A DNA stretch of 35,497 nt from an uncultured Methanosarcinales archaeon (GCA_964647565.1 CAZYIM010000031.1:1-35497), one strand, 5' to 3'; counted from the stretch's first letter, positions 2,342 through 22,953 are shown. Notes: generated from the letters alone by a model not told the origin. Numbers and translations: made by a program.

Positions 2342-3004
2342 TTACCTGATTGGATCCATGCGGTTTACTGCCTGTACCCTGTAGACACCGTCAATCTGCA
2401 ATATCTTCTTTTCTTCAATCCCCTGTTGCAGTATTTCTTCATATTTCTTCTGAATATCTTCTTCAGTGTCATAAGGCGGGAAAAATCTCACCTTATCCTC
2501 AAATTCATCTAATTTACCCTCCCCACCTTCATCAATATTCTTAAGCACCTTCATCACATTGCCTCTCTTCCTGATATAGAATTCATTATAAGGCGGATCA
2601 AGCAGAGGATCAGAACTTATTATATAAAACTGGGTCATTTTTACTCTGGCAAGGTATACAAAAGCCCATTCTACTTCCTTTACCTGGCCAAGGGCATTGG
2701 CCCTGTCCAGGCCAAATTTATACATCTTTTCAATCTCTTCTTTGTTTCCCTCCACGACTGCATCAATTGTTCCATCAAAGTAATCATCACGTGCATTTAT
2801 GTCTTTGCCAGTAATATGATTATAAGGAATTTTTTTATCAGGATAACTCTCGATTAATACCTCTATTTTTTCATTGTTCTGTTCATAATAAAACTGAAAA
2901 GATGCATATGGCTCTCTTTTTTCTGAGAGTCGAGAAGACGCGCAACCCAACCAAAATAGCGAACTGATAAGAACTGAACCCACCCAAGCCTGCCATTGTT
3001 TCAT
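2342..3004 (-). CDS. Putative lipoprotein, paralog of 3073..3726, two internal repeats
   Basis: Signal peptide with lipobox WLGC; ARDDYFDGTID and DEGGEGKLD acidic loops; SD GAGGTG. Confidence 0.75.
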   Translation of the reverse strand: MKQWQAWVGSVLISSLFWLGCASSRLSEKREPYASFQFYYEQNNEKIEVLIESYPDKKIPYNHITGKDINARDDYFDGTIDAVVEGNKEEIEKMYKFGLDRANALGQVKEVEWAFVYLARVKMTQFYIISSDPLLDPPYNEFYIRKRGNVMKVLKNIDEGGEGKLDEFEDKVRFFPPYDTEEDIQKKYEEILQQGIEEKKILQIDGVYRVQAVNRMDPIR

Positions 3005-3072
3005 TTAAACCACCTCGCAAATAATAGGTTTTATTGTACCATATGAATTCATGGCTCGAGACTTTCCAAAAT

Positions 3073-3726
3073 CTATCTTAGTCCCATCGGATTAGTATCG
3101 GTCTCCACAAGATAGATTCCATCTGTTTCGATAATCCTACCTTCCTCAATACCTGCATCCAATACTTTGTTGTATCTCAATTGGATCTCTCCTATTGAAT
3201 AGGGATCCCCTTCCACTATTTCATCTATGCTACCATCTCTCTCCATATCAATGGCTTTTAATGGTGCAAACGGTCTTTCAAATGTTCGGGATATGAAAAA
3301 AACATTACGAGGCGTACCTGCAGTATAGCTTCTTATTTCATAGATATAGGATCCTTCTTGATATGTATAAGTGAAGGGCCATTTGTTAGTCCGTATCCTA
3401 CCCAAAATCTCGGCTTGTCTCAATCCAGCATCATATATTGCCTGTATTTTTTCCTTTGAGAATTTCCCCTTCGCATAATCAACTATTTTATTCTGTCCAT
3501 CGTCTCGCGCCGTAAATTTAAACATCTGTTCTTTGCATTCAATGATTGTATACGCTTCTTGACCAGGATCATTAATTGATTTTATTAAAATCTTATGTGT
3601 TTTGTTGTCTTCTGTTTTATAGTTAAAGGAAAAAGTAGACCTCGGCCTCACTCCAGAAAACATTGTACAGCCCGTAAACATTAAGGGTATTAATGAACTT
3701 AGTGCAACTTTCTTTGTAAATTTCAT
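3073..3726 (-). CDS. Putative lipoprotein, paralog of 2342..3004
   Basis: Lipobox FTGC; ARDDGQNKIVD and DMERDGSID loops; C-terminus GIEEGRIIETDGIYLV matches GIEEKKILQIDGVYRV; SD AGGTGA. Confidence 0.75.
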   Translation of the reverse strand: MKFTKKVALSSLIPLMFTGCTMFSGVRPRSTFSFNYKTEDNKTHKILIKSINDPGQEAYTIIECKEQMFKFTARDDGQNKIVDYAKGKFSKEKIQAIYDAGLRQAEILGRIRTNKWPFTYTYQEGSYIYEIRSYTAGTPRNVFFISRTFERPFAPLKAIDMERDGSIDEIVEGDPYSIGEIQLRYNKVLDAGIEEGRIIETDGIYLVETDTNPMGLR

Positions 3727-3786
3727 TCATATCACCTAACAGTCAGTTATTCTTCACAAATATTTAAGTGTTCTATAAATTAAAAC

Positions 3787-5208
3787 TTAATCATACTCAA
3801 ACCATGGAGGGATCTGCTGTGCTTCCCATAACCTATAATAAGCATCAGCACCCACACCAATTGGATCGTAAAAATAAAACTTATAATACGGCGTGAATTT
3901 AAAACTATGATAGTATTGCCAAATCTTATAGGGCCTGCTTTCGCGAGGCATAGTCTCATAAATTATTTCATCTGGAGGGCCACAACAAATCCAGACAATA
4001 CCCATATGACTGTCACTGCCTTTTAATCCACCAGCACTAAAATTTTCATTAGCAAAATGAACTCTTTTGGCAAATTCATCTAAAAACTCATTTTCTCTTG
4101 TATCAGAAGTCGGATCAAACTCTTTCCAGAATTCATACCAGGTATTCTCCCGAGATTCTCCAGGTTTGGATTTTTTTAGTTGCTCATACAATTCTGAATC
4201 ATATTGAATAAAATTTTTTACCAGTTTAAGAGTAAAATCAAAATCATCTGCAAGATCAAACTCTGCTTTGTAAATCCCAAACTGTTTGCTAATACCTGTG
4301 CTAAGATTATCAGATTTTGCCTCAATACCAAGAAGGTACACTCCATTTGCGAATTCACCAAGATCAAAGCGCGCAGTCTTTATGTCTTCAACTGATTCGG
4401 TTCGTAAGGAGTCTGGAAGAAGTTGGTTGCCTTTAGCGTCGAATATCGAATACTCAATATTGACAGGATTTTTGTTATTATAGATCATATAGGATATGTC
4501 CAGGACATCCTTGAACCTCCTATTTGAATATTGTAGGAGTTTTATCCTAGCTATAGAAGAAGTATCTTGTTCATCTCCAAATAAATCTTTCTTATATTCA
4601 GGAAAGCCAATGTCGCTCAGCACCAAATCATCCTCTTTGAAGGATTCCACAATAACATTTTCTCTTTCAACTTTTGCCTTCTGCTTTGAATTGTGATCCT
4701 CAAAATTGACAACAAGCATATATTCTCCGGGCGCAATCTGAAAAGACTTCCTTCTTATAATCGCATTATCTGCTTTTGTCGATTCAAAATTGTCAAAGGT
4801 GAGTGTTTCATCCCAGATCTTATCAAAAACATATTCACCGTCTTTATCATAACATTGTAAACCGACAGTAAATTCAGAGCGATATTTCTCGCCTTCAGTT
4901 TTAACAAACTGTTGATCATTGGTATTTAGGGAGTAAAAAAGCTCAACATCATATACACCCTCTTTCCACGTGCCTTGGAAATCTACAAAGAAATCAATAT
5001 CTCCCTCTGCATCAGGAGGCACTTGATAAAAAGGAGATGTTTGCTTATACTTAGGGAAAAGGATCTCATCTTGGTTCAAAATTTCATCCAATCCTTGTTT
5101 TAAGGCAGCACAAGAAACCAAACCGCCTAAAGCCAAAACTAAGGCCACACCTTTTGTTTTACCCCACAAACTATTTAACAAGCTCGTTTGGATCCCCTCC
5201 ATCATCAT
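3787..5208 (-). CDS. GWxTD-domain-like lipoprotein with divergent motif
   Basis: Lipobox LVSC; C-terminal FWKEFDPTSDTRENEFLDEFAKRVHFANENFS...KGSDSHMGIVWICCGPPDEI...PYKIWQY follows the GWxTD domain pattern. Start may be ATG 5202 or 5205. Confidence 0.8.
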   Translation of the reverse strand: MMMEGIQTSLLNSLWGKTKGVALVLALGGLVSCAALKQGLDEILNQDEILFPKYKQTSPFYQVPPDAEGDIDFFVDFQGTWKEGVYDVELFYSLNTNDQQFVKTEGEKYRSEFTVGLQCYDKDGEYVFDKIWDETLTFDNFESTKADNAIIRRKSFQIAPGEYMLVVNFEDHNSKQKAKVERENVIVESFKEDDLVLSDIGFPEYKKDLFGDEQDTSSIARIKLLQYSNRRFKDVLDISYMIYNNKNPVNIEYSIFDAKGNQLLPDSLRTESVEDIKTARFDLGEFANGVYLLGIEAKSDNLSTGISKQFGIYKAEFDLADDFDFTLKLVKNFIQYDSELYEQLKKSKPGESRENTWYEFWKEFDPTSDTRENEFLDEFAKRVHFANENFSAGGLKGSDSHMGIVWICCGPPDEIIYETMPRESRPYKIWQYYHSFKFTPYYKFYFYDPIGVGADAYYRLWEAQQIPPWFEYD

Positions 5209-5221
5209 CTAGCAAATTTAG

Positions 5222-5241
5222 TATTTAAACTTTCGCAATAG
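5222..5241 (-). promoter_or_regulatory. Archaeal promoter (BRE/TATA) with upstream CTATTG box for the GWxTD-like gene
   Basis: Minus strand reads CTATTG CGAAAG TTTAAATA; same layout as promoters at 21067-21086 and 21117-21136. Confidence 0.6.
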
Positions 5242-5302
5242 GGATTCTATAATGGAAAAATAAATAAAGGCGCATTAAATTACGTTAAAAGGGTGCTAAA
5301 AA

Positions 5303-5734
5303 ATAGTTAAGATTCATATCCAAAAAATTCGCGATGTCAAATCTCCAAATTATGCTCATATAGGAGATGCGGGCATGGACATCTTTTCTGCTATTGATCA
5401 TATCCTTAAGCCAGGAGAACGCAAGCTGATTCCAACAGGCATTAAGTTTGCTATACCTTTAGGTTATGAAGCTCAAATCCGACCTAAATCAGGCCTTGCC
5501 TTGAAGCACGGCCTTTCCATCGTCAACACACCAGGCACACTTGATGCGGGTTATAGGGGTGAACTTGGAGTAATCCTTATTAACCATGGTAATGAAACAT
5601 TCTCAATTGAAAAGAACACTAAGATCGCCCAGATGGTCATAACCAAGGTAGAACAAGCAAATGTTGTTGAAGTATCTGAACTTGACGAAACCACTAGAGG
5701 CGATGGTGGTTTTGGCAGTACAGGCCTAGAATAA
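5303..5734 (+). CDS. dut: Trimeric dUTPase
   Basis: GDAGMD, RPKSGLA, PGTLDAGYRGE, KIAQMV, RGDGGFGSTG motifs. The frame extends upstream of ATG 5375 to ATA 5303, with an in-frame stop at 5297-5299. Confidence 0.95.
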   Translation: MVKIHIQKIRDVKSPNYAHIGDAGMDIFSAIDHILKPGERKLIPTGIKFAIPLGYEAQIRPKSGLALKHGLSIVNTPGTLDAGYRGELGVILINHGNETFSIEKNTKIAQMVITKVEQANVVEVSELDETTRGDGGFGSTGLE

Positions 5735-7078
5735 TCAAGCAGTTCTAAGAAATTTTCTTGTGCTTAGTTTTAGCCATATTGAACTAATGACTCCGCTTAT
5801 TACATTTGCTACAAGAATCGATATGAATATCGCTTCAATTCCATATCCATAAACATCCATCAAGACCAGGGATATCAATAATACTATCACAATGGTTCGG
5901 AGGGTATTCATCACCATACCTGGTAAGCCCCGGCCTATACCCTGAAATATGGCTATAGATATTATACCCAACGCTGCGAATGGAAATGAAAAGACAACAA
6001 AACGTAGATAGTTAGTACCTGTCAATATCACCTCAGGATTATTGATAAAAAAGCTTATCATGGGTTTTGCAAAAATAAAAAGCAATATTCCTGACAAAGT
6101 CATCCATGCAGTTGAAATTGAAAATGAGAAATTGATTATTGATTTCAGTTTTTTATATTCCTTCGCACCCTTGAAATAACCTGCAACTGTGATAGCACCC
6201 GCAGAAAGGCCAATCAAAGGAAGTATAATAAGAGATTCCACTCTGTGACCTAAACCAATTGCAGATATACCTATTGCTCCAAATCTTGAGACCAACCAGT
6301 TAAGGATCATAAAACCAACCACCATAGTCATCTGAGATATTGATGTGGGTACACCCACTATTAAAATATTCTTTAAAGTGTTCCAGGAATATTTAAAATG
6401 TTTTAATCGGATATCAAATCCTGATTTCTTTTTGATCAAGATGTGGTTGATTATAAGCAAGGCGGTAATGAACCGGGATATCACTGTTGCAATCGCAGCA
6501 CCTTTTACACCTAAACCAAGCACAAAAATAAAGATTGGATCCAGAGCAATATTTATCAGCATTGCAATTATCATGAATTTCATCGGATTCTTGGTATCAC
6601 CTTCACCTCGTAGGACTGAGTTGGCAATAAAGTCAAAGAACATGAATAGGCTTCCCAGAAAAATCACTGTCAGATATTGAATGCCATATTCAAGATAGTT
6701 CCCTTTTGCACCCATCAGTAGCAGGATAGGTTTTGTCAGGATGATGCCCAGGATTGTAATTAAGATACCTACTATAACACTAAAAACAATTGCATGTTCA
6801 GCAGCTTTATTTGCAGCTCGTTTGTTCTTTTCACCAAGCCTGCGAGATATCAATGAAGTTGCACCCACTCCAATTCCTCCTCCAAGAGCTATAAGCAAGA
6901 ACTGCACTGGAAAAGCCATGGTCAATGCTGCAACGGCATCTGCCCCCAATCTCCCAACAAAAAAGGTATCCACGATATTAAACAAAGTGTGAACTGAGAA
7001 TGCTATAATCATGGGTAACGAAAGCATAAGAAGACCCTTTCTGGGCTGCTTGATTAGTTGCTTTAATTTATCACTCAT
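5735..7078 (-). CDS. MATE family efflux transporter
   Basis: NIVDTFFVGRLG, LRGEGDTKNPM, NIALDPIFIF, GVKGAAIAT; about 12 TM helices. Likely start MSDKL at 7078 (track extends to 7156). Confidence 0.93.
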   Translation of the reverse strand: MSDKLKQLIKQPRKGLLMLSLPMIIAFSVHTLFNIVDTFFVGRLGADAVAALTMAFPVQFLLIALGGGIGVGATSLISRRLGEKNKRAANKAAEHAIVFSVIVGILITILGIILTKPILLLMGAKGNYLEYGIQYLTVIFLGSLFMFFDFIANSVLRGEGDTKNPMKFMIIAMLINIALDPIFIFVLGLGVKGAAIATVISRFITALLIINHILIKKKSGFDIRLKHFKYSWNTLKNILIVGVPTSISQMTMVVGFMILNWLVSRFGAIGISAIGLGHRVESLIILPLIGLSAGAITVAGYFKGAKEYKKLKSIINFSFSISTAWMTLSGILLFIFAKPMISFFINNPEVILTGTNYLRFVVFSFPFAALGIISIAIFQGIGRGLPGMVMNTLRTIVIVLLISLVLMDVYGYGIEAIFISILVANVISGVISSIWLKLSTRKFLRTA

Positions 7079-7193
7079 AATCTGCAAATCTAGAGCAAGA
7101 TTTATAACACTTTTGCAACAGTATTTTTTCATTTCGCAGTGGTAACAAAACAACAAACTTTATAAAGGGTGAATGGTTTTTTCGACGCATAAG

Positions 7194-8585
7194 ATGATGA
7201 AGTTAATCAAGATCACAGATAAGAGCACAAGAGTAGTGCCTCACGACAGATTCAAAAGCAGGGAAAAAGGCCTTCAAAAGCTGGTTGAAAAGGCCATGAG
7301 TGAGCTTCTCGACCTTAATTTTGTTGGCACAGAGATGACCATCAGCTATGGAGGAAGAATCGATTCAATCGGCATAACAGATGAAAACAGACTAACCCTG
7401 GTCGAATACAAAGAAAGAGTTTCTAAAGACATATTTTCACAGGGCCTATTCTATGTGGATTGCGCAATAAATAGCCCTGACGAGTTTGCAAAATGGGTCA
7501 GAGATCAAAGTGGAGCCGAGATAAACAAACAGCTAGATCCCAAACTAATTCTAGTATCAAAATCATTTAACACATTTCAGAAATTTGCATTCAACAGGGT
7601 GAATAATGAACAGGAGCTACTATTCAAAGAGTATGAAGTGTTCAAAGGAAGAGGGCAAAGATATCTAGCCCTTCGAAACTGTCCTCTACCCCAAGATTTC
7701 ACAGATGGTCAAGAGTTTGATGAAGACTTAAGATTGATTAAAGATAATGGCAAAGTAGAAAGGCTCCAAGAAATAATAAATGAAATTGATCATGAAGAGA
7801 TACGAACTCTTATATTCAAGCATGCACCCCTTTTAATTAACTCCAGATGCTTCAAGAGAGAGATCAAAGAGGGATATAAAGGAATCAATTCCATTTTCAA
7901 TACAGCCCTGGATTTATCAACAGATAGGTTCATGATATTGGAATATGACTCAATCCATAATTTCCTTGATGATGCTATAATTAAAAAAACCTGGGCCATT
8001 AACCATAAGGAACGAATGGAAGAAGCCATCGGTGAAAAAGGCGTCATAAATTGGAATTATGAACCCAGAATCTTAATTTTTGCAAATAAGCTAACACCTC
8101 TAGAGAAAATTGCAATAGACAGTATTCCAAGTCAAATCATACCCTTCGAATATAAGATGTTCAGTGAAAAAGATGGCAGCAGATACCTTCTTCTTGAACA
8201 GGCCACACTTCCCAGAGATTTCCACACATTCCCAAAATACAGAATCTATGGAATAGACGATACAATCAAGAATATCGATAATCCGCAAACCAAGAAAGCT
8301 CTTGGAGAAATAGTTTCTGAAATCAATGGTCTTGGCAATGATGTGAAGATCAAATACAGGAAGAGCAGCATAAGCATTCATCGAAAAAATTTATTTTGCA
8401 GGATAAAACCTTATCGCGAGCATATCAATATCAAGATTAAGATAGGCTCACAGCTCCAGGATCCAACACATCAAACTGAAAACCACAAGATGGATGAAAA
8501 CTACAGACGATTCAATATAATTAGAAAAGCTGATGTACCCTATGCACTCCAGTTGGTAAAACAAGCTTATGATATCAATAAGTGA
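7194..8585 (+). CDS. PD-(D/E)xK (NucS/DUF91-like) nuclease with a duplicated degenerate nuclease domain and C-terminal DUF5655-like domain
   Basis: EKGLQKLVE...GRIDSIG...LVEYK...QGLFY in repeat 1; second homologous block; C-terminal KIKYRKSSISIHRKNLFCRI...YALQLVKQAY. TATA at 7159-7166 suggests a start near 7194. Confidence 0.75.
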   Translation: MMKLIKITDKSTRVVPHDRFKSREKGLQKLVEKAMSELLDLNFVGTEMTISYGGRIDSIGITDENRLTLVEYKERVSKDIFSQGLFYVDCAINSPDEFAKWVRDQSGAEINKQLDPKLILVSKSFNTFQKFAFNRVNNEQELLFKEYEVFKGRGQRYLALRNCPLPQDFTDGQEFDEDLRLIKDNGKVERLQEIINEIDHEEIRTLIFKHAPLLINSRCFKREIKEGYKGINSIFNTALDLSTDRFMILEYDSIHNFLDDAIIKKTWAINHKERMEEAIGEKGVINWNYEPRILIFANKLTPLEKIAIDSIPSQIIPFEYKMFSEKDGSRYLLLEQATLPRDFHTFPKYRIYGIDDTIKNIDNPQTKKALGEIVSEINGLGNDVKIKYRKSSISIHRKNLFCRIKPYREHINIKIKIGSQLQDPTHQTENHKMDENYRRFNIIRKADVPYALQLVKQAYDINK

Positions 8586-8684
8586 TTGCAATAAATTCCA
8601 CAAACTCTTGTTCTGAATCACGAAATTATTTTTAAACCAGTGCGTCTTACAACTAGATTGTAGCAAAAAAATTCACAATAAAGA

Positions 8685-9248
8685 ATGAACTCGAAACAAC
8701 AAGACTATTGGGCCACTTTATGGAAGAATCCTAAACAAAGGAAACAGATACTAGATGAAGCTATGGCTTATGCAAAACAGGGGCAGAGGGGTGTTGAAGA
8801 TGTCGCGCAATATATTGCCGACAGGCTGGGGGTTGGTAAATTATTCAAGTCTTACGGCAAATTCGAGAAGGCAGTAGCAGGAAATCAGACAGCAATGTCG
8901 TACATGAACCGGCCAATCAATCCATTTCTTGCCATGTCACAGGATGAACTAAAGCTGCCTGCCAATGAGCTAGAAGACAAAGCTACCCAAGAGTATTATC
9001 GCATCCATCAGGAACTGCTAACCGCAGTTCCTGATCTTGGTGAAGAAGAACTTAAAAACCTTTCAATGAAAGATTCGCAATCAGCCTATTCTGTCTTTAA
9101 AGCTCTCTACAAAGAAGGCGCATTCCAGCCAATACCGCAGTTAGCCCAATACTTGAAAAACAATTCTAATATCCAATCTGAACAAGCTTCTGAGTTTTTA
9201 TGCGATGCAATATTCAGACTGCAAAAAGCAGATTTCAAATTAGTGTAA
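8685..9248 (+). CDS. Hypothetical helical protein
   Basis: 187-aa ORF with an upstream TATA-like element and a downstream T-rich tract; no recognised motif. Confidence 0.7.
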   Translation: MNSKQQDYWATLWKNPKQRKQILDEAMAYAKQGQRGVEDVAQYIADRLGVGKLFKSYGKFEKAVAGNQTAMSYMNRPINPFLAMSQDELKLPANELEDKATQEYYRIHQELLTAVPDLGEEELKNLSMKDSQSAYSVFKALYKEGAFQPIPQLAQYLKNNSNIQSEQASEFLCDAIFRLQKADFKLV

Positions 9249-9374
9249 AACAGCAATTTTTTTATTTATTTTTTTATACCAGCCATCATAAGTCGCCAAT
9301 AAACTCCCTATTTTTATTACTTTAGAGTGATAAAAAACGAAAGCTTTATAAAGAAAAATAGCTTATTTCTGCAC

Positions 9375-10676
9375 ATGTATCCTCATACAAAAAAACTAAC
9401 AAGAGGTCAGAAGACTAGACGAGCAATTAGCACTTTAGTTGTAGCAGGAATAGGTGTATTTGGAATAAAGTATGCAGTAACAATCAATAATTACCTTAAA
9501 CCCTTTGAAAACACTTCTGGTAAGAAAAATGTCGTTTTAATTTCCCCTCATAAAACAGCAGATCCTGACAGTTTCTTGCAAAAAAGAGCAAAAAAATTCA
9601 AGAAAATACTGTGTAAAAGAGAACCATTTCGTGAAATGAAATCTCCCTTTGACACGACAAAAGCCAACTATTTCTGTCATACAATAAAGGTTCCTGCCGA
9701 AGCATTAAAACCAAACAATAGCATGTTATCTTTCGATAGAATTATTAAATGGCAGATAGACTCAGTATTAACAGCAGTTGCAAAAAAACATGGCTCAATA
9801 GATCTTGGCATGTTACTTAATCACTCCTCCCCTGACACAAGCGCACTTGCCAAAGTATACCAACAAACAATTATTAAAGAAACACCAACAAAAACCCCTG
9901 GAGTAACTATATGCCAAACAAGATGCCAAAAAAAGACAGCCACCATATCTAATGAGGACATAGAGTTCATTGCAAGAATCAATCCATACTCACAAAAAAT
10001 ATTCAACAACAACTCAAATTTTATATATTATGGCTGCTCTGCAGGAAGAGAGGCAGATCTTGACTCTTTAGGTTCTGCTAAGGGATCCTCTATTGCAAGG
10101 CAGTTAAGTGAGTCATATGGAGTTACTGTTGAAGCACCAAGACATATCTACATGGGATCGATAATAAGGGACGGTGAAAAGATTTTTTTAACATCAAGCA
10201 AACACCCGAAATACCTTGAACATATTCCAATCTCAGATGGTGATGTCATCAAAGATGAAGCATTCAGTATCAAAGGTCCTGACAACAGAGAATATGTTGT
10301 TATATGTAAGAGGGAAATTCTAGACAAGACAACAAATATTGTACATGCATGCAGCGATATCAACAGGATAGTCAGCCTTCGAAACCAAATGACAATGGAT
10401 GAGGATGAGAAAAGAATATCTGAACTCTATGATCACGGGATTAACAAGTTCGATATTAATAAATTAGAAGAACTAGGCTACACAAACTACAAAGAACATC
10501 CTGGCCACACATATTTCATGGACACCAGAACATTTTACAGGCCAAGCAAGTTCAAAAGAATATGCAACAAGGTTGCGCTTGATATTGAAAGATTCACAGA
10601 GATTAAAAAAGCAGAATATGGTATATTGAAAACCAAACTTCTTCTGCAGTACTACAAACTGATTGATAAATATTAG
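9375..10676 (+). CDS. Membrane-anchored protein with possible caspase-fold (DUF4347-like) His/Cys dyad
   Basis: N-terminal TM (RRAISTLVVAGIGVFG); LLNHSS and IYYGCSAG...SIARQLSESYGVTVEAP; TATA at 9345-9352 supports ATG 9375. Confidence 0.6.
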   Translation: MYPHTKKLTRGQKTRRAISTLVVAGIGVFGIKYAVTINNYLKPFENTSGKKNVVLISPHKTADPDSFLQKRAKKFKKILCKREPFREMKSPFDTTKANYFCHTIKVPAEALKPNNSMLSFDRIIKWQIDSVLTAVAKKHGSIDLGMLLNHSSPDTSALAKVYQQTIIKETPTKTPGVTICQTRCQKKTATISNEDIEFIARINPYSQKIFNNNSNFIYYGCSAGREADLDSLGSAKGSSIARQLSESYGVTVEAPRHIYMGSIIRDGEKIFLTSSKHPKYLEHIPISDGDVIKDEAFSIKGPDNREYVVICKREILDKTTNIVHACSDINRIVSLRNQMTMDEDEKRISELYDHGINKFDINKLEELGYTNYKEHPGHTYFMDTRTFYRPSKFKRICNKVALDIERFTEIKKAEYGILKTKLLLQYYKLIDKY

Positions 10677-10961: not shown

Positions 10962-10964
10962 GCA

Positions 10965-14700: not shown

Positions 14701-14708
14701 CAAAAACT

Positions 14709-15095: not shown

Positions 15096-15120
15096 TATTA
15101 ATCCTCCTATTCACTCTTAT

Positions 15121-15516
15121 TTATTTTTTCTTTTTTTTAGAAGCAGTAATCTCCTCAGTTAAGAGCTGTATCTTATCAGGATCTTTCTTTATTTCCTTAA
15201 TAATACTGGCAGGCCCAATAATAGTGAGTCCTTTCCGGTCTCCAAGCAGGAGATTGATTAGTGATGATTTGATTTTCTTTAGGAAAGGGTCTGCATCCCG
15301 ATTCTCAGGATAGACAACACTCAGTTCAATACCTTTGAACTGGTCATTTATCTGCTCCATGGTCTTTCTAATCAACTCAGTCTCCTCATAGGACTTGAGT
15401 TTTCCTTCTAGAAGAACTATCTTCTCCTCTTTGACAATCCTTAATAATTTATTGATCCTCTTCTGAGAACTCAGATTCTCAATATCTCGATAAGGCACGA
15501 ATTGTAGTGTTAACAT
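15121..15516 (-). CDS. oapB: OapB, DUF2073 protein (COG3365)
   Basis: IVLLEGKL..EETELI..TM..I...FKGIE, GLTIIGPA. Confidence 0.88.
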   Translation of the reverse strand: MLTLQFVPYRDIENLSSQKRINKLLRIVKEEKIVLLEGKLKSYEETELIRKTMEQINDQFKGIELSVVYPENRDADPFLKKIKSSLINLLLGDRKGLTIIGPASIIKEIKKDPDKIQLLTEEITASKKKKK

Positions 15517-15517
15517 T

Positions 15518-16150
15518 TTACTTCACAACCCTAAATAAAGCTTCATAAAACTCATCTATGTTATTCCCAAATTTAGCACTTATACCAATTACTTCATACT
15601 GAGGGAAAGCTGACTGAAGCTTCTTAAGATCCGACTTCTTGAGATCAATCTTATTCCCGACGATCAACACAGGGATTTTTCTGGCTTCTAGATTACCAAT
15701 TATCGTAATATTGACCTGCGTATAAGGATCTTTGGTACTATCAAGAACAATCACCACCGCATCCATGTCATCTAACCATTTAATAGAATCGATGACACCT
15801 TTCGTCGCCTCTTTCGCTCTAGACTTGGCCTCTGTCTCTTTCAAACCTAGTTTCATAAAGTCCTCGTAGTCAATTTTCGTCGCTATACCTGGCGTATCAA
15901 CAAGATTAAAAGCCAGCTCCTTTCCCTTGCTCTTGATGGAAATCTGCTCTTTGATCTGTATCTCTCGCGTCTCATGCGCAACATTAGACACAGAACCCAT
16001 CTCTTCACCTAGCCAATCCAAACAAACCTTATTGGCCAAGGTTGTTTTTCCACCATTAGGAGGACCATAGAGGCCCATTTTTATCTGTTTTTTCTTATTA
16101 AAAAGATTCCTGAAGAACTTTTTTATAAAAAACTTAAACGAACTAATCAT
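15518..16150 (-). CDS. oapA: Era-like GTPase OapA
   Basis: GPPNGGKTT, HETR, DTPG, DPYTQVN, NKID, ISAK. Confidence 0.9.
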   Translation of the reverse strand: MISSFKFFIKKFFRNLFNKKKQIKMGLYGPPNGGKTTLANKVCLDWLGEEMGSVSNVAHETREIQIKEQISIKSKGKELAFNLVDTPGIATKIDYEDFMKLGLKETEAKSRAKEATKGVIDSIKWLDDMDAVVIVLDSTKDPYTQVNITIIGNLEARKIPVLIVGNKIDLKKSDLKKLQSAFPQYEVIGISAKFGNNIDEFYEALFRVVK

Positions 16151-16416
16151 AAAGAAATTTCTGAATTAAGGAATATATAAAGATTGTGCTTTTTTAGTCT
16201 ATATTTCTCGTTTTTTCGCATATGATATAAGGTGTTTATTAAGCCTGAATCCCTTTTTAATTTGATACGTTTTGTGTCAATCTCGGCCAGTTTAAAATCA
16301 CAATATGCCTAATTCTCCACCATAATATATCGGCAATTCAGCAACATATGAACGTAAGTTTAATAAATCATCCCGCACATTAATAGTATTGTAAGCTATC
16401 AGATATAGGGGACACA

Positions 16417-16605
16417 ATGATACGCGACAACCAAAGGCTAGAAAACAAATGTCAATACATTAAGGCAATGGTTAAAGGTGAATTTGAGCCTAAAGCTGGA
16501 GAATTTGGTTTCTGGAACCCCGAGGGTGTGCTGGTTTATCAGCAAAGATATATAACATCAATAGATTCCAGACCAAAATACCGAACCAGAAGATCACGAC
16601 CTTAA
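16417..16605 (+). CDS. Small hypothetical protein
   Basis: 62-aa ORF with SD-like AGGGGA and an upstream TTTAATAA; no recognised motif. Confidence 0.45.
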   Translation: MIRDNQRLENKCQYIKAMVKGEFEPKAGEFGFWNPEGVLVYQQRYITSIDSRPKYRTRRSRP

Positions 16606-16698
16606 TTCAATTGCCATTAATGTTTCAAGATTTAATGTTTTACCAGAATATCATTCTTTATCTTCAGAATCTGTTGATTGTGTAAGTTAAGAAATTTA

Positions 16699-17073
16699 TT
16701 AAAATTTCTTTTTCTTCTTCTCATAATTCTTTATGGCTTCCCTTAGGGCATCGGCTGCCAGATTGCTACAGTGCATCTTCATAGGAGGCAGACCGTCCAA
16801 AGATGCTGCAACCTCATCTTTTGAAATATTTTTTGCAGCCTCCAAGGTTTTGCCTTTGGCTATCTCAGTGATTACGCTGCTAGTAGCAATTGCAGCTCCG
16901 CAACCAAAGGTCTTGAACTTTATATCCGCAATTTTATTATCTTTGACCTTGATCTGGATTTTCATCAAATCACCACAGACAGGATTGCCGACTTCCCCTT
17001 CTCCATCAGGATTTTCCATCTCACCTACATTTTTAGGATTTGTAAAATGTTGCATAACTTTATCGCTGTACAT
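16699..17073 (-). CDS. iscU: Fe-S cluster scaffold IscU/NifU
   Basis: YSDKVMQHFTNPKNVG, NPVCGD, TFGCGAAIA, LPPMKMHCS; SD AGGTGG 7 nt before ATG 17073. Confidence 0.95.
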   Translation of the reverse strand: MYSDKVMQHFTNPKNVGEMENPDGEGEVGNPVCGDLMKIQIKVKDNKIADIKFKTFGCGAAIATSSVITEIAKGKTLEAAKNISKDEVAASLDGLPPMKMHCSNLAADALREAIKNYEKKKKKF

Positions 17074-17095
17074 GTTCATACCACCTTTGCTTTTT

Positions 17096-18286
17096 TTATT
17101 CTTCTTCATGTTCATGCCCATGATCAGTTGTTTTAGGTATATAACCTTCTTTAATCGGACTTAGCGCCCTGAGCTTGACAATTATCTCTTTTAAAGCCCC
17201 AATAGTGTAATCCAGTTCCTCTTTAGTTGTATATCTGGATAAGGTAAACCTGATGGTCCCGTGTGCAACTTCATGCTTTAATCCTATGGCAAGTAACACA
17301 TGACTGGGTTTTAGCGACTGACTAGAGCATGCAGAGCCTGTTGAAACTGCAATGCCTTTCATATCTAGCTGCAACAATATAGATTCTCCCTCTATAAAGT
17401 TAAATGAAATACTGGCATTATTGCATAATCTTTGTTCCCTATGCCCATTTAGCTGAGTATGAGGAAACTTTAGCAATTCATCTATAAGATAATTCCTAAG
17501 TTCAGTCAGTTGTTCAACATGATTTTCATTTGCCAACTCTACTGCTTTTGCAAAGCCAACTGCACCAGGTATGTTTTCTGTCCCTGCGCGTATATCGTGC
17601 TCATGATGACCGCCATGAATCATTTTTTTCAGTTTCAGACCTTTTCTGATATAAAGCGCACCAATACCTTTTGGACCGTGTATCTTATGAGCAGATAGTG
17701 CTGCTAATGCAATGTTCATCTTCTTTACATCAAAGGGAACCTTAGTGAAGCTCTGGACTGCATCTGTATGCAAAAGTACATTTTTTCCAGCACAGATCTT
17801 GCCTATTGCCTCCATATCTTGGATCACGCCAATTTCATTATTGGCATGCATTATTGAAACCAAGATTGTCCTATCTGTTATTGCGTTCTCCAACTGTTGT
17901 AGATCAATCAAACCATCTTTATCAACTTTCAAATAAGTTATCTCAAACCCATCCTTAGTTAATTCTTTGCAGGTTGAAAGGATTGCAGGATGTTCAATAT
18001 CAGTGGTTACTATATGATTGCCTTTATCTTTATTACTATATGCAATGCCCTTTAGAGCCAGATTGTCGGATTCAGAGCCTCCAGATGTGAATATGATCTC
18101 AGAAGGATCTGCATTAATCTTATTCGCTATGACCTCCCTACTATCTTCAAGAGCTTGTTTAGCATCTCTTCCAAATTGATGAAGAGAGGAAGCATTGCCA
18201 TACTTCTCTGAATATATAAGTGTCATAGCATCTACTGCTTCTTTGGCAACCATCGTGGTAGCTCCATTATCGAGATATGCCTTCAT
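17096..18286 (-). CDS. iscS: Cysteine desulfurase IscS/NifS
   Basis: YLDNGATT, FTSGGSESDN, HTDAVQ, SAHKIHGPKG, STGSACSS. Confidence 0.97.
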   Translation of the reverse strand: MKAYLDNGATTMVAKEAVDAMTLIYSEKYGNASSLHQFGRDAKQALEDSREVIANKINADPSEIIFTSGGSESDNLALKGIAYSNKDKGNHIVTTDIEHPAILSTCKELTKDGFEITYLKVDKDGLIDLQQLENAITDRTILVSIMHANNEIGVIQDMEAIGKICAGKNVLLHTDAVQSFTKVPFDVKKMNIALAALSAHKIHGPKGIGALYIRKGLKLKKMIHGGHHEHDIRAGTENIPGAVGFAKAVELANENHVEQLTELRNYLIDELLKFPHTQLNGHREQRLCNNASISFNFIEGESILLQLDMKGIAVSTGSACSSQSLKPSHVLLAIGLKHEVAHGTIRFTLSRYTTKEELDYTIGALKEIIVKLRALSPIKEGYIPKTTDHGHEHEEE

Positions 18287-18643
18287 TTATTTACCTCCGA
18301 GTTTTCTCTGCAAGCGAGGTCCCAGCAAGCTTTGCTTACTCTGGACCCTCGCACAGCATTCTGAGCAGCAATATTTTTTTGTGTGTTTGTCAACAAGTTT
18401 CATTAAAGGAAGAATAGTCTCTTTATTCAGGGAATATATCCTTTTCTTACCATCTTGCTTGACATCAAGGAAATGACAGTCAGTCAGCTTCTTTAGATTG
18501 TGTGATATTTTACTCTGCTCCTCGTCAAGCCTTTCACAAATATCACTGACACAAAGCGATTCTGCCATCAACAGTTCAAGTATCCTTACCCGTATCTTCG
18601 AAGCCATGACTTCAAAAAATACGTTATATGAAACACACCTCAT
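18287..18643 (-). CDS. ArsR/SmtB family regulator heading the iscSU operon
   Basis: RVRILELL...CVSDIC....EEQSKISHNLKKL...KKRIYSLN; Cys-rich tail. Confidence 0.9.
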   Translation of the reverse strand: MRCVSYNVFFEVMASKIRVRILELLMAESLCVSDICERLDEEQSKISHNLKKLTDCHFLDVKQDGKKRIYSLNKETILPLMKLVDKHTKKYCCSECCARVQSKQSLLGPRLQRKLGGK

Positions 18644-18673
18644 ATGATGTAGGATTCATATGTTATTTATAAA
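18641..18673 (-). promoter_or_regulatory. Leaderless promoter and ArsR-type inverted-repeat operator
   Basis: CATATGA-N8-TCATATG (18641-18662) overlaps the start codon; TTTATAAA at 18666-18673. Confidence 0.7.
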
Positions 18674-18733
18674 GTTTTCTATTGCGGAGCAAGAGAAAAC
18701 TCAAGGAACGACAGTGACAGAGCCTATTAAGAA

Positions 18734-18997
18734 CTATTTGATGCTCATCCTGCAGGCCTGCACCCTCTCTCCTCTGCAACCAGGACACTTGCTGGGCGTC
18801 TTGATCTTGCTCCTTTCCTTAAAGACAAAACCGCAGACTAAACAGACAGCAGGATCAATTTTAATCTTATTCGATATTCTAATATGATCAATATCTTCAA
18901 GAATATCTGCAAGAGTGGTCTTATATTGATTAGCAATTTCCTGGGCAGAAATAGGCCCATCTTTTAGCATTAGTTCGATCTCTTCTCTTCTCGTCAT
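18734..18997 (-). CDS. HTH + Zn-ribbon transcriptional regulator (COG3357)
   Basis: MTRREEI...DIDHI...PAVCLVCGFVF...PSKCPGCRGE. Confidence 0.88.
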   Translation of the reverse strand: MTRREEIELMLKDGPISAQEIANQYKTTLADILEDIDHIRISNKIKIDPAVCLVCGFVFKERSKIKTPSKCPGCRGERVQACRMSIK

Positions 18998-19000
18998 TTT

Positions 19001-19645
19001 TTAAGAAAATAGTGCAGTACCAATACGGATCATGTTTGAGCCCTCTTCAAGAGCCACCTTGTAATCATTAGACATACCCATGCTCAAATATTTCATCTCT
19101 ACATTAGAGATGCTTTCCACTTTTATCTTGTCAAATATAGATTTCATTCGTTTAAAATATTGACGAGTTTCTTCAGGCTCTACAAAGGGCGCCATACACA
19201 TTAAACCCAAAACCTTAATATTTTTCAGATGCGCAATATTTTCGATAAAAGAAAGCACATCATCAGGAGATACACCATATTTCTGGGGTTCTTCTCCAAT
19301 ATTCACCTCAACGAGAATAGACATGACCTTACCAACATTCCTTGAACGTTTGTCAATCTCCCTAGCAAGCTTCTCAGAATCAACACTTTGAATCATATCA
19401 AATATCTCGACCACTTTTTTTACCTTGTTTGTCTGAAGGTGACCAATCATATGCCATTTGACAGAACTTCCAATATGAGGATATTTTTCCAAAGCTTCAT
19501 GAATCCTGTTCTCGCCAATATCACTAACACCCAGAAAGATAGCCTGATTTATCTCTTTTAGAGATCTCGTCTTGGTAACTACCACCAACTTAGCTCTATC
19601 ATTAATCTGCCTTTTCAACTCAGCCAAGTTATTATCAATGCCCAT
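19001..19645 (-). CDS. yggS: PLP homeostasis protein YggS
   Basis: VVVTKT, IGENRIHE, WHMIGHLQTNKVK, LSMGMSNDY, IRIGTALF; start at ATG 19645 or TTG 19651. Confidence 0.95.
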   Translation of the reverse strand: MGIDNNLAELKRQINDRAKLVVVTKTRSLKEINQAIFLGVSDIGENRIHEALEKYPHIGSSVKWHMIGHLQTNKVKKVVEIFDMIQSVDSEKLAREIDKRSRNVGKVMSILVEVNIGEEPQKYGVSPDDVLSFIENIAHLKNIKVLGLMCMAPFVEPEETRQYFKRMKSIFDKIKVESISNVEMKYLSMGMSNDYKVALEEGSNMIRIGTALFS

Positions 19646-19659
19646 TTTCAAGAAGAATT

Positions 19660-20265
19660 TTAGAATGTTTTTGTATTTTTCGGTCGAGAATATTGATCAT
19701 GTGAAAACCCATTTTTTTTAAAGATTTGCGCGATATCCTCTTTAAGTCTTGAAGTGTCAGGGCCATTATTTTTAATACCAAATGAAATAATTGCGGAATT
19801 AGAAGCTCCTGCAATATAAAACTCCAATAAAGAATCATGAAGCTTGAATTTCAATTCAACTATATATCCAAGATAAGGCTGCTTGTTATAGTTCAGAACA
19901 GCAGAAACAGAATACGGTCTTTGCGTGATAGCAAGATTCTTCTCATCTAAAGGTCGTAAATAAAGCAGGCCGTTTTCATATAGGGATTTCACACTCTTTT
20001 TTAGCCTCTGGCTCTTTTGACTGTTCTTTTTAACTTCAAGTTCAGTCAGACAGCCGGTTATATAATTAAGTTTTACTCTTTCACGAAGATTTTCAAGCTG
20101 TAGTTCTTCATGATTGTATTCATAGAACAATTTAAGGCTATCAACAACAGCATCTAGAAAACTTTCAAAAGTCTTATCTGTCTGGCAATAAAGCAGTTCC
20201 TCTAAAGAACTCCCCTCTTCAACAAATTTTATTTTTTTAAGATGGATTTCGCAAAGATAACTGAT
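19660..20265 (-). CDS. Hypothetical protein, start uncertain (ATC 20265 or TTG 20130)
   Basis: Frame is open upstream of 20130 to the preceding gene's stop; GGGGGGA lies 5 nt before ATC 20265. Confidence 0.55.
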   Translation of the reverse strand: MSYLCEIHLKKIKFVEEGSSLEELLYCQTDKTFESFLDAVVDSLKLFYEYNHEELQLENLRERVKLNYITGCLTELEVKKNSQKSQRLKKSVKSLYENGLLYLRPLDEKNLAITQRPYSVSAVLNYNKQPYLGYIVELKFKLHDSLLEFYIAGASNSAIISFGIKNNGPDTSRLKEDIAQIFKKNGFSHDQYSRPKNTKTF

Positions 20266-20331
20266 TAAAATCCCCCCATTATGATTAAAAAAAGGGAGTT
20301 CATTTTTATTTTTTACGAAAAAAAAGAAAAA

Positions 20332-21033
20332 TCAACGTTTTCTGTTTAGGTTCACTGCAGGAGTTTGTGCCTGATATTTCCTTTCAGAAGGTAAATATTT
20401 CCTCAATGACTTGGTCTTATCAGCCTCCATGATTTTTACACTTTCCCTAAAATCCTCCAGCAGTTCTGGCTCAACATTCGATTCAACCAAATCATACATT
20501 TTCTTGGAAAGATAAAGAGGATTCCACGAGGAAGGAAGATCATCTTTTCGAAGCCGTTTAGGATCTCTTTTCTGAATGTTAAACTCGCCACCAGGACTCT
20601 GTTTACCTACACTGTTCAGCCAAAGATAAATGTCTACATAAGTATCTTCATTTTTTGAGTGGTAGAATATATCAGAAAGCGCCCAAATATAATCATCCCC
20701 GTCCCAAAGAGAAGCCTCAAGACCATAATCTCCGGGAGGCACAAACTTAAACCAAAAATTGATAGGATTGTAGTCTATAGTCTTATAGTAACCGACAATG
20801 TCCCCAGGTTCAAAGCCATACATATTATCTTCAAACGTCAGGATCACTTCAATATCTTCGTCAGTATAGTCGTCTGTCCCAAATTCCCCATCCCGTTCAT
20901 ATTCTGCGTTACCTAATACATGCGGATAGGTTTCATAGACATATTCAACTACAGTGTTTTCCCTCACACAGCCAGGTACTGTAAGCATACCTGCAACCAA
21001 CAGCCATTTTGTTAAACGTCCCAAAGATTTCAT
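20332..21033 (-). CDS. Putative lipoprotein, hypothetical
   Basis: MKSLGRLTKWLLVAGMLTVPGC signal/lipobox; acidic, aromatic beta-rich domain; SD GGGGTGA. Confidence 0.75.
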   Translation of the reverse strand: MKSLGRLTKWLLVAGMLTVPGCVRENTVVEYVYETYPHVLGNAEYERDGEFGTDDYTDEDIEVILTFEDNMYGFEPGDIVGYYKTIDYNPINFWFKFVPPGDYGLEASLWDGDDYIWALSDIFYHSKNEDTYVDIYLWLNSVGKQSPGGEFNIQKRDPKRLRKDDLPSSWNPLYLSKKMYDLVESNVEPELLEDFRESVKIMEADKTKSLRKYLPSERKYQAQTPAVNLNRKR

Positions 21034-21066
21034 GCTTTCACCCCTATTTTTAACCAGGAATTGTAT

Positions 21067-21136
21067 TATTTATATTTTTGCAATAGTGTGGGCAATATTG
21101 TCCCAGAATAGGGACACTATTGATAAAATTTAAATA
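21067..21136. promoter_or_regulatory. Divergent promoter pair with nested inverted repeats and CTATTG boxes
   Basis: (-) CTATTG CAAAAA TATAAATA at 21067-21086; (+) CTATTG ATAAAA TTTAAATA at 21117-21136; internal IR caatattgtccc/gggacactattg. Confidence 0.7.
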
Positions 21137-21168
21137 GTTTCTGAAGCTATTTATAGAGGGTGAAAAAA

Positions 21169-22953
21169 ATGGATGGCCATGCTTTGGGGAACAAATTAGG
21201 TAATATTCTGAAAAGAGGAGTTCTTTGGGCAGCAACAACTGTTTTTTGTTTATCTACAATGAGCTGCTATACACAGGTTGCAGTACCTTATGCAAAAAGA
21301 CGACCTGTCGAAAGAGTAATACAAGAAAAAGAGACTGATGTGCAGACTCTTATGGAACAAGAGTATACAACAGAAGATGCACGCTCTTTTACAGCCTATG
21401 TAACTAAAGCTGATGATCCGAACAATCCTGATCTGGAGTTCAGGATGAGGTACAATGCAGAAGGCGAAAATGACAAGAGACTTTATGATATTGTTGTCAA
21501 AGAAAAGGCTGATGATTCAAATGAGAAAAATCTCGAACGCGTCGGACAGATGTTAGACATTGGCGACCTGGTCTATGTAAGAGGTGAGTACACCAAGACA
21601 GGAGAATACTCTGATGATGTAGGACCTGTTGAAATAGGATTCATGGATCCATTCTATGTTGGAGAGGTTGATGCCCAAACAGGCCAAACAACACCAATTT
21701 TTACTGAGAGCCAAGCATCCAAACTTTATGCCCTTGAAGACGAACATCTAGTCGAGTATCTGTTATGGGAACCTTCAGGAGTTATTATTGATCTTGATTT
21801 GAATTGGAGATACTATCCCAGTTATTTTGATTGGAATCCCAGCTGGGACTGGGATGGTGACGGCATAATGAACTGGAGAGATCCCTGGCCTCATAGCTTC
21901 GGTCCCTATGTGGACACCAATCATAATGGCAGGATTGATGCCTGGGATATCAGGGCAGGAGGTTCCTGGGGATGGTACGGCTGGTATTGGCAGGACTTTT
22001 ATCATCATGATATGTGGTGGCACATGCATGATCATATGTATGGGTATGGAGGCTGGAATCATTACTGGTCAAGACCCATAATTGTATATGACACTCATCA
22101 TCACCACAAAAACCATAAGAGAGATTTTACCAGGCATCAAAAAAGGTTCTTGGATATTGAAAGGAGAGGTCGTAGAGGCGGCGAAGCTCCAGGTCTAAGA
22201 AGACCCACAGGGCTAAAAGACAGATATGCCAATGTCAGACCTGACAACAGGAGAATAAGAAAGGATTACTACAAGAAAACCCTGAGCGGCGAGTATAGCC
22301 AAGATAGGCGCAGAACTGCAACAAGATTATTGACACCAGTTAAAAAGGATGTTGCGAGAGAAAGGGCAAGAACCTTAGAAAACAGGTTTGGAAGCCGAAG
22401 CTCTGAAGTAACTAGGAATAAAAGAGTGCGTTCTGGTAGTCAGGACAGAGGCTATGAAGGAAACAGAAGCACACAACAAGGAACTCGAAGTAGAAGTAGC
22501 AGCGGATCAAGTAGAGTGGGTAAAAGTCAATCAGGAAGCAGTAATAGAGGCAGCTCAACTAGAGGCCGTTCTGGTAGCAGTAGCAGGTCTAAGGGGAGTT
22601 CTGGAAGCAGAACAAGAAAAAAAGATAGTCAAGACTTATCTATGGATCGCATTATTCAGTCCAGCCCAAGACAAGTTCAACCCAGGCAACCCAAACGAAC
22701 GACAACAAAACAATATCAACCTAAAATAAAGCAGAACTCTCGAGCCAGGAACTATTCATCACCTAAAACGTCCACACCCAAATCAACCTATAAGCCAAGA
22801 ACTCAATCAAGAAGCAGTTCTGGCTCTAGCAGCAGGGTAAGCAGAAGCAGCGGGTCAAGTTCGCGTGGTAGCAGTGTTTCCAAAAGTAGTGGATCTCGCT
22901 CGCGTTCAAGCTCCAGCAAAAAATCAAGTGGTTCAAGAACAAGAAAAAAATAA
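21169..22953 (+). CDS. Lipoprotein with Ca-binding-like loops, a Trp/His/Tyr-rich segment and a long duplicated Ser/Arg/Gly tail
   Basis: TMSCYTQ lipobox; DWDGDGIMNWRDPWP and DTNHNGRIDAWD; two SSGSRTRKK-ending blocks. Start at ATG 21169 (SD GGGTGA) or GTG 21160. Confidence 0.8.
   Translation: MDGHALGNKLGNILKRGVLWAATTVFCLSTMSCYTQVAVPYAKRRPVERVIQEKETDVQTLMEQEYTTEDARSFTAYVTKADDPNNPDLEFRMRYNAEGENDKRLYDIVVKEKADDSNEKNLERVGQMLDIGDLVYVRGEYTKTGEYSDDVGPVEIGFMDPFYVGEVDAQTGQTTPIFTESQASKLYALEDEHLVEYLLWEPSGVIIDLDLNWRYYPSYFDWNPSWDWDGDGIMNWRDPWPHSFGPYVDTNHNGRIDAWDIRAGGSWGWYGWYWQDFYHHDMWWHMHDHMYGYGGWNHYWSRPIIVYDTHHHHKNHKRDFTRHQKRFLDIERRGRRGGEAPGLRRPTGLKDRYANVRPDNRRIRKDYYKKTLSGEYSQDRRRTATRLLTPVKKDVARERARTLENRFGSRSSEVTRNKRVRSGSQDRGYEGNRSTQQGTRSRSSSGSSRVGKSQSGSSNRGSSTRGRSGSSSRSKGSSGSRTRKKDSQDLSMDRIIQSSPRQVQPRQPKRTTTKQYQPKIKQNSRARNYSSPKTSTPKSTYKPRTQSRSSSGSSSRVSRSSGSSSRGSSVSKSSGSRSRSSSSKKSSGSRTRKK

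Follow-up and report, generated by a model that had tools for sequence, protein, structure and literature searches.

Five lipobox proteins of an uncultured archaeon are probably part of its own surface lipoproteome, in a lineage that encodes bacterial-type Lgt and LspA

A 35,497-nt stretch of DNA deposited under an uncultured Methanosarcinales archaeon (GCA_964647565.1, CAZYIM010000031.1:1-35497; the whole stretch is called the window here) encodes five proteins with bacterial-looking lipobox signal peptides, one of which also carries a GWxTD domain. It raises the question of whether an archaeon has taken envelope proteins from a bacterial partner. A sequence-only reading of the window had proposed that it has, and that a symbiotic or parasitic DPANN-type archaeon uses the captured proteins at the cell-contact interface, which could point to the host lineage. 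Our analysis favors another answer: the five open reading frames (ORFs) are probably ordinary members of the archaeon's own surface lipoproteome and not a recently imported bacterial kit, and only one of the five, P0003, appears to show bacterial ancestry. As far as homology can tell, an old bacterial origin does hold for the GWxTD domain and for the lipoprotein maturation machinery of the lineage. The features concerned are arranged in the window as follows, with lengths in amino acids (aa).

2342..3004, minus strand: P0001, predicted lipoprotein precursor of 220 aa, WLGC, Cys21; tandem paralog of P0002
3073..3726, minus strand: P0002, predicted lipoprotein precursor of 217 aa, FTGC, Cys20; internal two-fold repeat
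3787..5208, minus strand: P0003, predicted lipoprotein precursor of 473 aa, LVSC, Cys33; first gene of the co-directional trio
3910..4197, minus strand: GWxTD domain of P0003, aa 339-433; motif degenerate (G-S-D-S-H-M-G)
20332..21033, minus strand: P0004, lipoprotein-like precursor of 233 aa, VPGC, Cys22
21034..21168, no strand: divergent spacer between P0004 and P0005, with TATA-like boxes, both Shine-Dalgarno motifs and a 9-nt inverted repeat
21169..22953, plus strand: P0005, predicted lipoprotein precursor, TMSC; the ORF opens with GTG at 21160
21847..21948, plus strand: two DxDxDG loops of P0005, DWDGDG and DTNHNG, aa 230-263 (GTG numbering)
22096..22950, plus strand: basic low-complexity tail of P0005, aa 313-597, isoelectric point (pI) 12.0, net charge +60

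All five ORFs were recovered with stop-free translations, and each product begins with a K/R-bearing N-terminus followed by an h-region free of charges and, within about 40 residues, by a Cys preceded by G or S; lipidation of the five proteins is predicted. The coordinates, translations and signal peptides of five lipobox proteins in two clusters, as the sequence-only reading had described them, were thereby confirmed, and so were the archaeal expression signals that it had mentioned. AT-rich TTTAAATA-like boxes, read by eye, were found upstream of 5208 and within the 21034-21168 spacer, and GGTGA-type Shine-Dalgarno motifs precede four of the five starts (in P0002, 7 nt before the ATG). For P0005, the ATG at 21169, which lies 7 nt downstream of GAGGGTGA, is a likelier start than the GTG at 21160. 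Within the spacer, CAATAGTGT at 21081-21089 and ACACTATTG at 21114-21122 form an inverted repeat of 9 nt without mismatch, a candidate operator for co-regulation of P0004 and P0005. Pfam and NCBIfam scans of the five proteins revealed no enzymatic domain.

Lipobox signal peptides proved to be a trait of the whole genome bin to which the window belongs (G000). A relaxed PROSITE-like lipobox pattern matches 82 of the 2654 ORFs in the bin, and our own pattern matches 69. The strict pattern ([LVI][ASTVI][GAS]C, after PMC12462473) matches 31; depending on the pattern, the ORFs are spread over 18-38 contigs. At the residue that follows an h-region and [GAS], Cys was found in 69 of the 2654 ORFs, Trp in 13 and His in 10, the genome-wide frequencies of these residues being 1.35%, 1.07% and 1.99%, respectively. 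Cys is therefore enriched about 5-fold at the lipobox position across the genome when compared with residues of similar frequency. The two-cluster arrangement of the dispersed set had been described correctly but is not distinctive, because larger lipobox clusters occur on other contigs. One of them (C41:14490-18873) is a row of seven consecutive lipobox ORFs, about 165-435 aa long, whose signal peptides end almost identically in LFLAGSAxxWMAC; an array on C8 resembles it, and further large tandem arrays were seen at C12:20621-25243 and C34:24729-26199.

Both enzymes of bacterial-type lipoprotein maturation are encoded in G000. The Lgt gene on contig C8 (G000:C8:41012-41722; L012 1480-2247) gave 231 bits with PF01790 and 211 bits with TIGR00544 (cut-off 118.9), and the LspA gene on contig C61 (G000:C61:8620-9000; L013 1465-1965) gave 99.8 bits with PF01252 and 91.7 bits with TIGR00077 (cut-off 73.95), so that both exceed the NCBIfam equivalog cut-offs. 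Pfam controls for the two enzymes were positive in 10 bacteria and in none of four archaea. A thioredoxin gene stands beside Lgt and an aIF-1A gene beside LspA. In the order sample, 140 of 151 genomes encode Lgt and 139 encode LspA (about 92%), genomes of a single contig included; after removal of three unpublished genomes (G111, G120 and G131) the counts are 137 and 136 of 148. In a phylum-wide sample, Lgt was likewise found in 140 of 151 genomes, made up of G000 itself, 113 of 116 genomes of the same order and 26 of 34 of the same class. Because Lgt and LspA are encoded by about 92% of the order genomes and by most of the class, the lipobox signal is, to judge from gene content, the normal surface-anchoring route of this lineage and not a mark of import. 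The sequence-only reading had called these lipoproteins bacterial-looking; the lipobox is no sign of import, being a genome-wide trait whose signal peptides can be processed by order-wide Lgt and LspA, and if the pathway is functional, lipobox signal peptides in such genomes should not be taken as evidence of gene transfer.

The five proteins represent four unrelated families, and three of these have archaeal relatives only, as far as origins are known. P0001 and P0002 are 31% identical over 210 aa (E 7e-19), with no further paralogs in the G000 genome. Their only relatives are P0016, a lipobox-like protein of 205 aa, and a 186-aa lipobox protein of G021, a member of the same order; the family was found in 2 of 201 order genomes and had no match in the KSB1-labelled genome G403. 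P0002 contains an internal two-fold repeat of a beta-meander, a D-G loop and a helix, in a structure model with a mean predicted local distance difference test (pLDDT) score of 69.9. A Foldseek search of this model against PDB returned no hit at E <= 0.001, and a wide VIA-align search gave a best Z of 5.8 (a cryptic polo box, root-mean-square deviation 9.1), which is below the meaningful level. P0004 combines an acidic D/Y/E-rich domain (pI 4.1) with a basic C-terminal segment (pI 9.7). A lipobox protein of 243 aa in G021 (39% identity over aa 39-151) is the one relative found, a word-based search of 5.8 billion proteins retrieved only P0004 itself, and the family occurs in 2 of 201 order genomes.

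P0005 is modular. Its acidic N-domain is joined to a double DxDxDG module and a segment rich in W, Y and H, and the protein ends in an S/R/K/G tail of 285 aa. Residues 206-312 contain 14% W, 13% D, 10% Y and 7% H, and residues 313-597 contain 22% S, 18% R, 9% K and 8% G; the layout with an aromatic-rich part and an SRG tail, which had been read from 21169-22953, is borne out by this composition. DWDGDG (aa 230) and DTNHNG (aa 252) stand 22 residues apart, and the same pair was found by regular expression in all six relatives examined. Both Pfam matches of P0005 are below cut-off, namely EF-hand_6 (16.9 bits versus 25, E 0.005) and Dockerin_1 (14 bits versus 22.9, E 0.06). An exhaustive search of 1.84 billion representatives, in a library without taxonomy, gave 34 hits. 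Four of them (P0019-P0022) share the N-domain at 32-42% identity, and the rest share only the DxDxDG module and comprise short lipoproteins such as P0024 and P0026, together with giant repeat proteins. In the same order, G127 encodes a 268-aa lipobox protein with the same module, an aromatic stretch and a basic tail; basic low-complexity tails are present in this protein and in all six relatives of P0005 examined. The P0005 family was found in 3 of 201 order genomes.

For the P0001/P0002, P0004 and P0005 families, the only relatives of known origin are thus archaeal and belong to the same order (G021 and G127), where known origin leaves out P0016 and P0019-P0026 and, among the GWxTD proteins, P0007 and P0008. 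Their lipoboxes in G021 and G127 read ALYSC, FLTSC and LIASC. No bacterial homolog of these three families could be demonstrated in the sequence searches. By the standard of the sequence-only reading itself, archaeal relatives of this kind speak against capture.

P0003 is the exception, and among the five it alone has a known domain. Its aa 339-433 match TIGR04514 with 75.5 bits (cut-off 28; 78.8 bits in the genome search), and Pfam GWxTD_dom (PF20094) gave no match in P0003 at E <= 0.1, whereas its relatives P0007 and P0008 carry precomputed PF20094 annotations; the degenerate motif of this clade may lie outside the Pfam model. The motif reads G-S-D-S-H in P0003 and G-Y-L-T-D in G021, as compared with GWETD or GWKTD (GWKTDRG, GWETDRG) in the bacterial-type proteins P0009-P0012. 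Two predicted beta-sandwich regions, with weak Wzt_C and Por_Secre_tail matches below cut-off, precede the domain, the secondary structure being taken from a low-confidence model (pLDDT 42.8) built on a four-row alignment. The full-length relatives are three metagenome proteins, P0007 (49% identity), L018 (47%) and P0008 (45%). In L018 the gene that follows the GWxTD gene encodes an unrelated 129-aa lipoprotein, which shows that the P0003-P0002-P0001 trio is not conserved there. The copy in G021, P0013, has 192 aa with the GWxTD domain only and no Cys, and is 37% identical to P0003 over query aa 283-472 (measured on L005, the same protein). Bacterial proteins of the same architecture are L006 (429 aa, from a KSB1-labelled metagenome-assembled genome) and L019 (428 aa), both 25-26% identical to P0003; L019 lies on an 866-kb contig, scores 71.5 bits with GWxTD_dom and adjoins an Omp85/POTRA gene. 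The Atlas clusters nearest to P0003 are bacterial, 447-461 aa long and most commonly from Gemmatimonadota. A scan of the genome contigs found nothing with the P0003 sequence and two loci with alignment A1, and a metagenome scan found six loci. We found no paper on GWxTD in the open literature.

Of the 301 genomes in the archaeal phylum sample, four contain GWxTD, three of them above the cut-off. With bacterial nearest Atlas clusters, L019 beside Omp85/POTRA and this scarcity in the archaeal phylum, the domain is of bacterial type, as had been stated. It does not, however, look like a recent capture. In a domain tree of 16 rows, G000, G021, P0007, P0008 and L018 form a clade with 100/99 support beside the bacterial rows, in a small, unrooted tree with long branches. 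P0003 would thus descend from a bacterial family by a transfer shared with G021, and this transfer is probably old, because identity to the nearest bacterial full-length proteins is only 25-26% and the archaeal copies form their own clade. A separate observation concerns G092, another archaeon of the order, where two neighbouring genes (G092:C14:5186-5503 and 7258-7581; L024 and L026) encode GWxTD proteins of 310 and 649 aa with the domain at the N-terminus, nearer to the bacterial consensus (119 and 115 bits). These copies fall outside the P0003 clade in the tree, which suggests at least two entries of GWxTD into the order. In P0011 and P0012, distant relatives of P0003, the domain sits after an M56 (BlaR1-type) domain, a position that in such proteins lies outside the cell.

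The genome that carries these genes is archaeal. The window is the whole of contig C31 in a 2.68 Mb bin of 86 contigs that is 86.9% complete and 1.85% contaminated. The rRNA of the bin matches SSU_rRNA_archaea with 1405 bits, with SSU_rRNA_archaea and LSU_rRNA_archaea on top in their clans, and a two-repeat TBP gene is present, the TBP control having been positive only in four archaeal control genomes. Relatives in the order and class have genomes of 0.5-2.3 Mb in more than 130 families; the order genomes sampled span 0.6-2.3 Mb, and the 0.5 Mb genomes belong to the same class only. McrA was found in none of 26 genomes. Of the earlier description as a DPANN-type archaeon, the archaeal identity (rRNA, TBP) and the small genomes of the relatives stood, although G000 itself has 2.68 Mb; the label DPANN-type is plausible for it. 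Eight short contigs of the bin have guanine-cytosine (GC) contents of 0.44-0.50, against a mean of the contigs' values of 0.39, and some of them may be foreign to it.

The contig is native to this archaeal genome, because its AlaRS, IscS and origin-associated GTPase genes match members of the order and because independent unitigs agree with it exactly. For AlaRS (26245-28782), 101 order genomes were searched; most are listed with a full-length match of 44-63% identity, G022 and G053 being the best at 63%. IscS shares 61% identity with its counterpart in G022 and finds a 33% match in G021, and the GTPase is 77% identical to that of G021, the best among five genomes compared. OapB, OapC and TrmB are encoded on the contig as well, and its GC content of 37% is close to the 39% mean over the 86 contigs' values (range 0.32-0.50). 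Four sequencing runs, belonging to two marine or seawater studies, supplied Logan unitigs that covered all 30 bins of 3001-23000 with zero differing letters at an even depth of 1-5, and bridged 4786-6325 and 20766-21477; the unitigs are at most 1.5 kb long and one run may be the source sample, so contiguity is supported, short of proof. Two deeper bins (13006-13672 and 17675-18341) fall in conserved genes, where contigs of other organisms contribute. The GC content rises to 0.42 at 21-23 kb, in the same place as the Ser/Arg/Gly-rich tail of P0005. Exact unitigs of four runs and archaeal neighbour genes speak against a chimeric contig.

Some further observations were made on the window and its relatives. 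About one third of the order genomes, including G021, show no full-length AlaRS match and only AlaX-like pieces, and AlaRS lies in two adjacent pieces in G046, G060, G080 and G098; the order may hold divergent or split forms. We considered whether G021 is a distant relative of G000, as its lack of a full-length AlaRS match and its IscS identity of 33% would imply, but this is countered by the GTPase at 77%. The evidence on the kinship of the two genomes points both ways, and we make no claim that the families shared by G000 and G021 were transferred together. The origin-associated set (OapC, OapB and the small GTPase) occupies 14709-16150 and is followed by a 548-bp intergenic region (16151-16698); a scan of 16100-16750 for repeats upstream of these genes found nothing convincing, and the window contains no tRNA. 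Beside P0005, a 969-aa ORF (22958-25867) lacks a signal peptide, matches coiled-coil-type models only weakly and was excluded from the set. Neither this ORF nor P0017 had a match in G021, G022 or G053.

It is in our judgment unlikely that the five are envelope proteins taken up from a partner bacterium, perhaps one of the FCB group, and displayed at a contact interface for attachment or mimicry, in which case their phylogeny would lead to the host. The idea is fed by the bacterial-type GWxTD domain and by the full architecture that P0003 shares with L019 and L006, yet the identity of 25-26% and the separate archaeal clade place that transfer far back. The rarity of all four families among relatives, and the fact that in the sampled genomes three of them occur together in G000 and G021 alone, would also fit an import, as would the bacterial hosts that PMC8204110 suspects for some Woesearchaeota and Pacearchaeota; against this, no bacterial homolog of three families was detected by sequence (in 5.8 billion proteins by word-based search and, for P0005, in 1.84 billion representatives), the relatives of known origin are archaeal, and the lipobox is accounted for by the lineage's own Lgt and LspA. 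In the Atlas feature search, the closest neighbours of P0002 are unnamed bacterial clusters that match it in length (scores 0.91-0.93), with Balneolota and Fidelibacterota commonest, but the recognition value of 1749 is below 2300 and makes this weak evidence, and the KSB1-labelled G403 lacks the P0001/P0002 family. A bacterial origin is therefore retained for GWxTD as an old descent, and recent capture is not supported for the three families with archaeal known relatives; because no donor phylum could be identified, no host lineage can be named. Several points nonetheless weigh against our reading of the set as ordinary surface lipoproteins. The Atlas leads of P0002 and P0003 weakly echo the FCB idea. 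The families are rare in the order and GWxTD is rare in the phylum, so that they are accessory genes and horizontal arrival is possible. The strict lipobox fits one of the five proteins (P0003, LVSC) and the relaxed pattern four, P0004 failing even this one with a Pro at position -2. The genome-wide counts come from a crude ORF caller and lipobox regular expression. A role in binding or adhesion is drawn from composition and domain context alone, the fold searches with P0002 gave no meaningful match and the P0003 model is poor. Finally, the G000 bin, at 86.9% completeness, exceeds every sampled relative in size.

This last point bears on an assembly or binning artefact, in which bacterial DNA would have been joined to or binned with archaeal DNA. 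The excess of the bin over the 0.6-2.3 Mb of the order and the wide GC range of its contigs would agree with it, but both clusters are flanked by archaeal or order-typical genes on one contig, the exact unitigs of four runs keep an even depth and bridge 4786-6325 and 20766-21477, and a second archaeal genome, with another GC content, has homologs of three families. The climb in GC to 0.42 coincides with the P0005 tail, and we regard an artefact as highly improbable. The signal sequences could also be plain signal peptides or signal anchors that are not lipid-modified, their likeness to a lipobox being incidental. Four of the five do depart from the strict pattern, and the Cys is missing from P0019, P0020 and P0013, the GWxTD protein of G021; on the other side, Cys is enriched genome-wide, it is kept at 30-45% identity in the G021 and G127 relatives and in P0007, P0016, P0022, P0024 and P0026, and Lgt and LspA are conserved across the order. 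This explanation is quite improbable, and anchoring by the lineage's own lipoprotein route, in a surface lipoproteome of its own, is the reading that we carry forward.

Under the lipoproteome reading, the precursors would be exported by Sec, the lipobox Cys would be lipid-modified by the bacterial-type Lgt and the signal peptide would be cut off by the bacterial-type LspA (signal peptidase II); the genes for the two enzymes are present, and the chemistry is presumed from them. The mature proteins would then be anchored on the outer face of the cytoplasmic membrane. Because the GWxTD domain follows M56 in P0011 and P0012, it could act in P0003 as a ligand-binding module. In P0005, two Ca2+-type DxDxDG loops would be joined to a polycationic tail, whose charge of +60 would favor adhesion to polyanions, for example DNA, acidic glycans or the envelope of another cell. 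That all five proteins serve in non-enzymatic binding or adhesion at the cell surface is an evenly balanced proposal.

Taken alone, the five proteins are unremarkable lineage-specific surface lipoproteins, and their context is what matters. The chief by-product of the analysis is a lipoprotein pathway of bacterial type that spans an archaeal class and is complementary to DUF63. DUF63 (PF01889), which is probably the AliA family (arCOG02177), as a 'COG01967' column head and the control pattern suggest, was not found in G000 at its 86.9% completeness; the control was positive only in three euryarchaea. In the phylum sample, DUF63 occurs in 3 of 151 genomes (G221, G239 and G242), all among the 11 without Lgt, and the two are thus mutually exclusive, a pattern that is descriptive in a set of related genomes. 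It is quite possible, if somewhat short of probable, that a class of small-genome DPANN-like archaea has replaced AliA-type lipidation by bacterial Lgt and LspA, with the window proteins as substrates. Bacterial Lgt takes its lipid from phosphatidylglycerol. If the replacement took place, therefore, these archaea would hold bacterial-type glycerolipids, made by themselves or scavenged from partners, or their Lgt would have adapted to ether lipids. With bacterial-type glycerolipids, the lipoproteome would record a bacterial association, a deeper form of the capture idea. Should the pathway be functional, the membrane lipid make-up and partner dependence of uncultured archaea would become testable.

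The replacement would also explain published AliA gaps in DPANN lineages with predicted lipoproteins. According to recent literature, no Lgt or Lsp homologs are known in archaea. Lipoproteins are predicted to be prevalent in DPANN according to PMC12462473; its supplement lists predicted lipoproteins of Woesearchaeota, for example 12 of 42 secreted proteins, and a table in the same paper gives 0/0 for arCOG02177/arCOG02178 in seven of seven Woesearchaeota genomes. We found no literature tying Lgt or Lsp to DPANN, in a search whose scope left subscription journals and database annotations outside, and the searched passages of PMC8204110 and of a 2026 aliA/aliB preprint contain no such link.

Compared with known systems, P0003 resembles the bacterial GWxTD proteins (TIGR04514/PF20094, about 430-460 aa) in its length, its N-terminal export signal and its layout, in which the GWxTD domain stands at the C-terminus behind one or more beta-sandwich regions that weakly resemble Wzt_C. 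It differs from them in its low identity, degenerate motif, archaeal carrier and predicted lipobox anchor, and the only other members of its clade are G021 and three metagenome proteins. P0005 shares with Dockerin I, EF-hand and bacterial TSP3 modules a pair of DxDxDG loops at a spacing of 22 residues, with a short run of hydrophobic residues after each loop, and relatives of its module include giants with TSP3_bac, FG-GAP or Dockerin_1 elsewhere; in contrast to these modules, P0005 scores below threshold and joins its module to a polycationic tail and an aromatic/His segment. Like the AliA/AliB lipoproteins of Haloferax volcanii, as described in PMC12462473, the window proteins are predicted lipobox Cys-anchored archaeal surface proteins, whereas G000 has predicted lipoproteins but no DUF63 match, which fits the Woesearchaeota rows published there, with their lipoproteins and no AliA. 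The proteins in PMC8204110 are likewise surface proteins with bacterial-type domains in small-genome archaea, with a proposed role in contact with bacterial hosts; they are giants, in contrast to the small lipoproteins without a detected enzymatic domain in the window. With the bacterial Lgt/LspA pathway, the archaeal system has in common both enzymes and substrates in which n-region and h-region lead up to a Cys preceded by G or S. It differs in its archaeal host and in lipoboxes that are here mostly relaxed, and its lipid donor may be ester-linked phosphatidylglycerol or an archaeal ether lipid.

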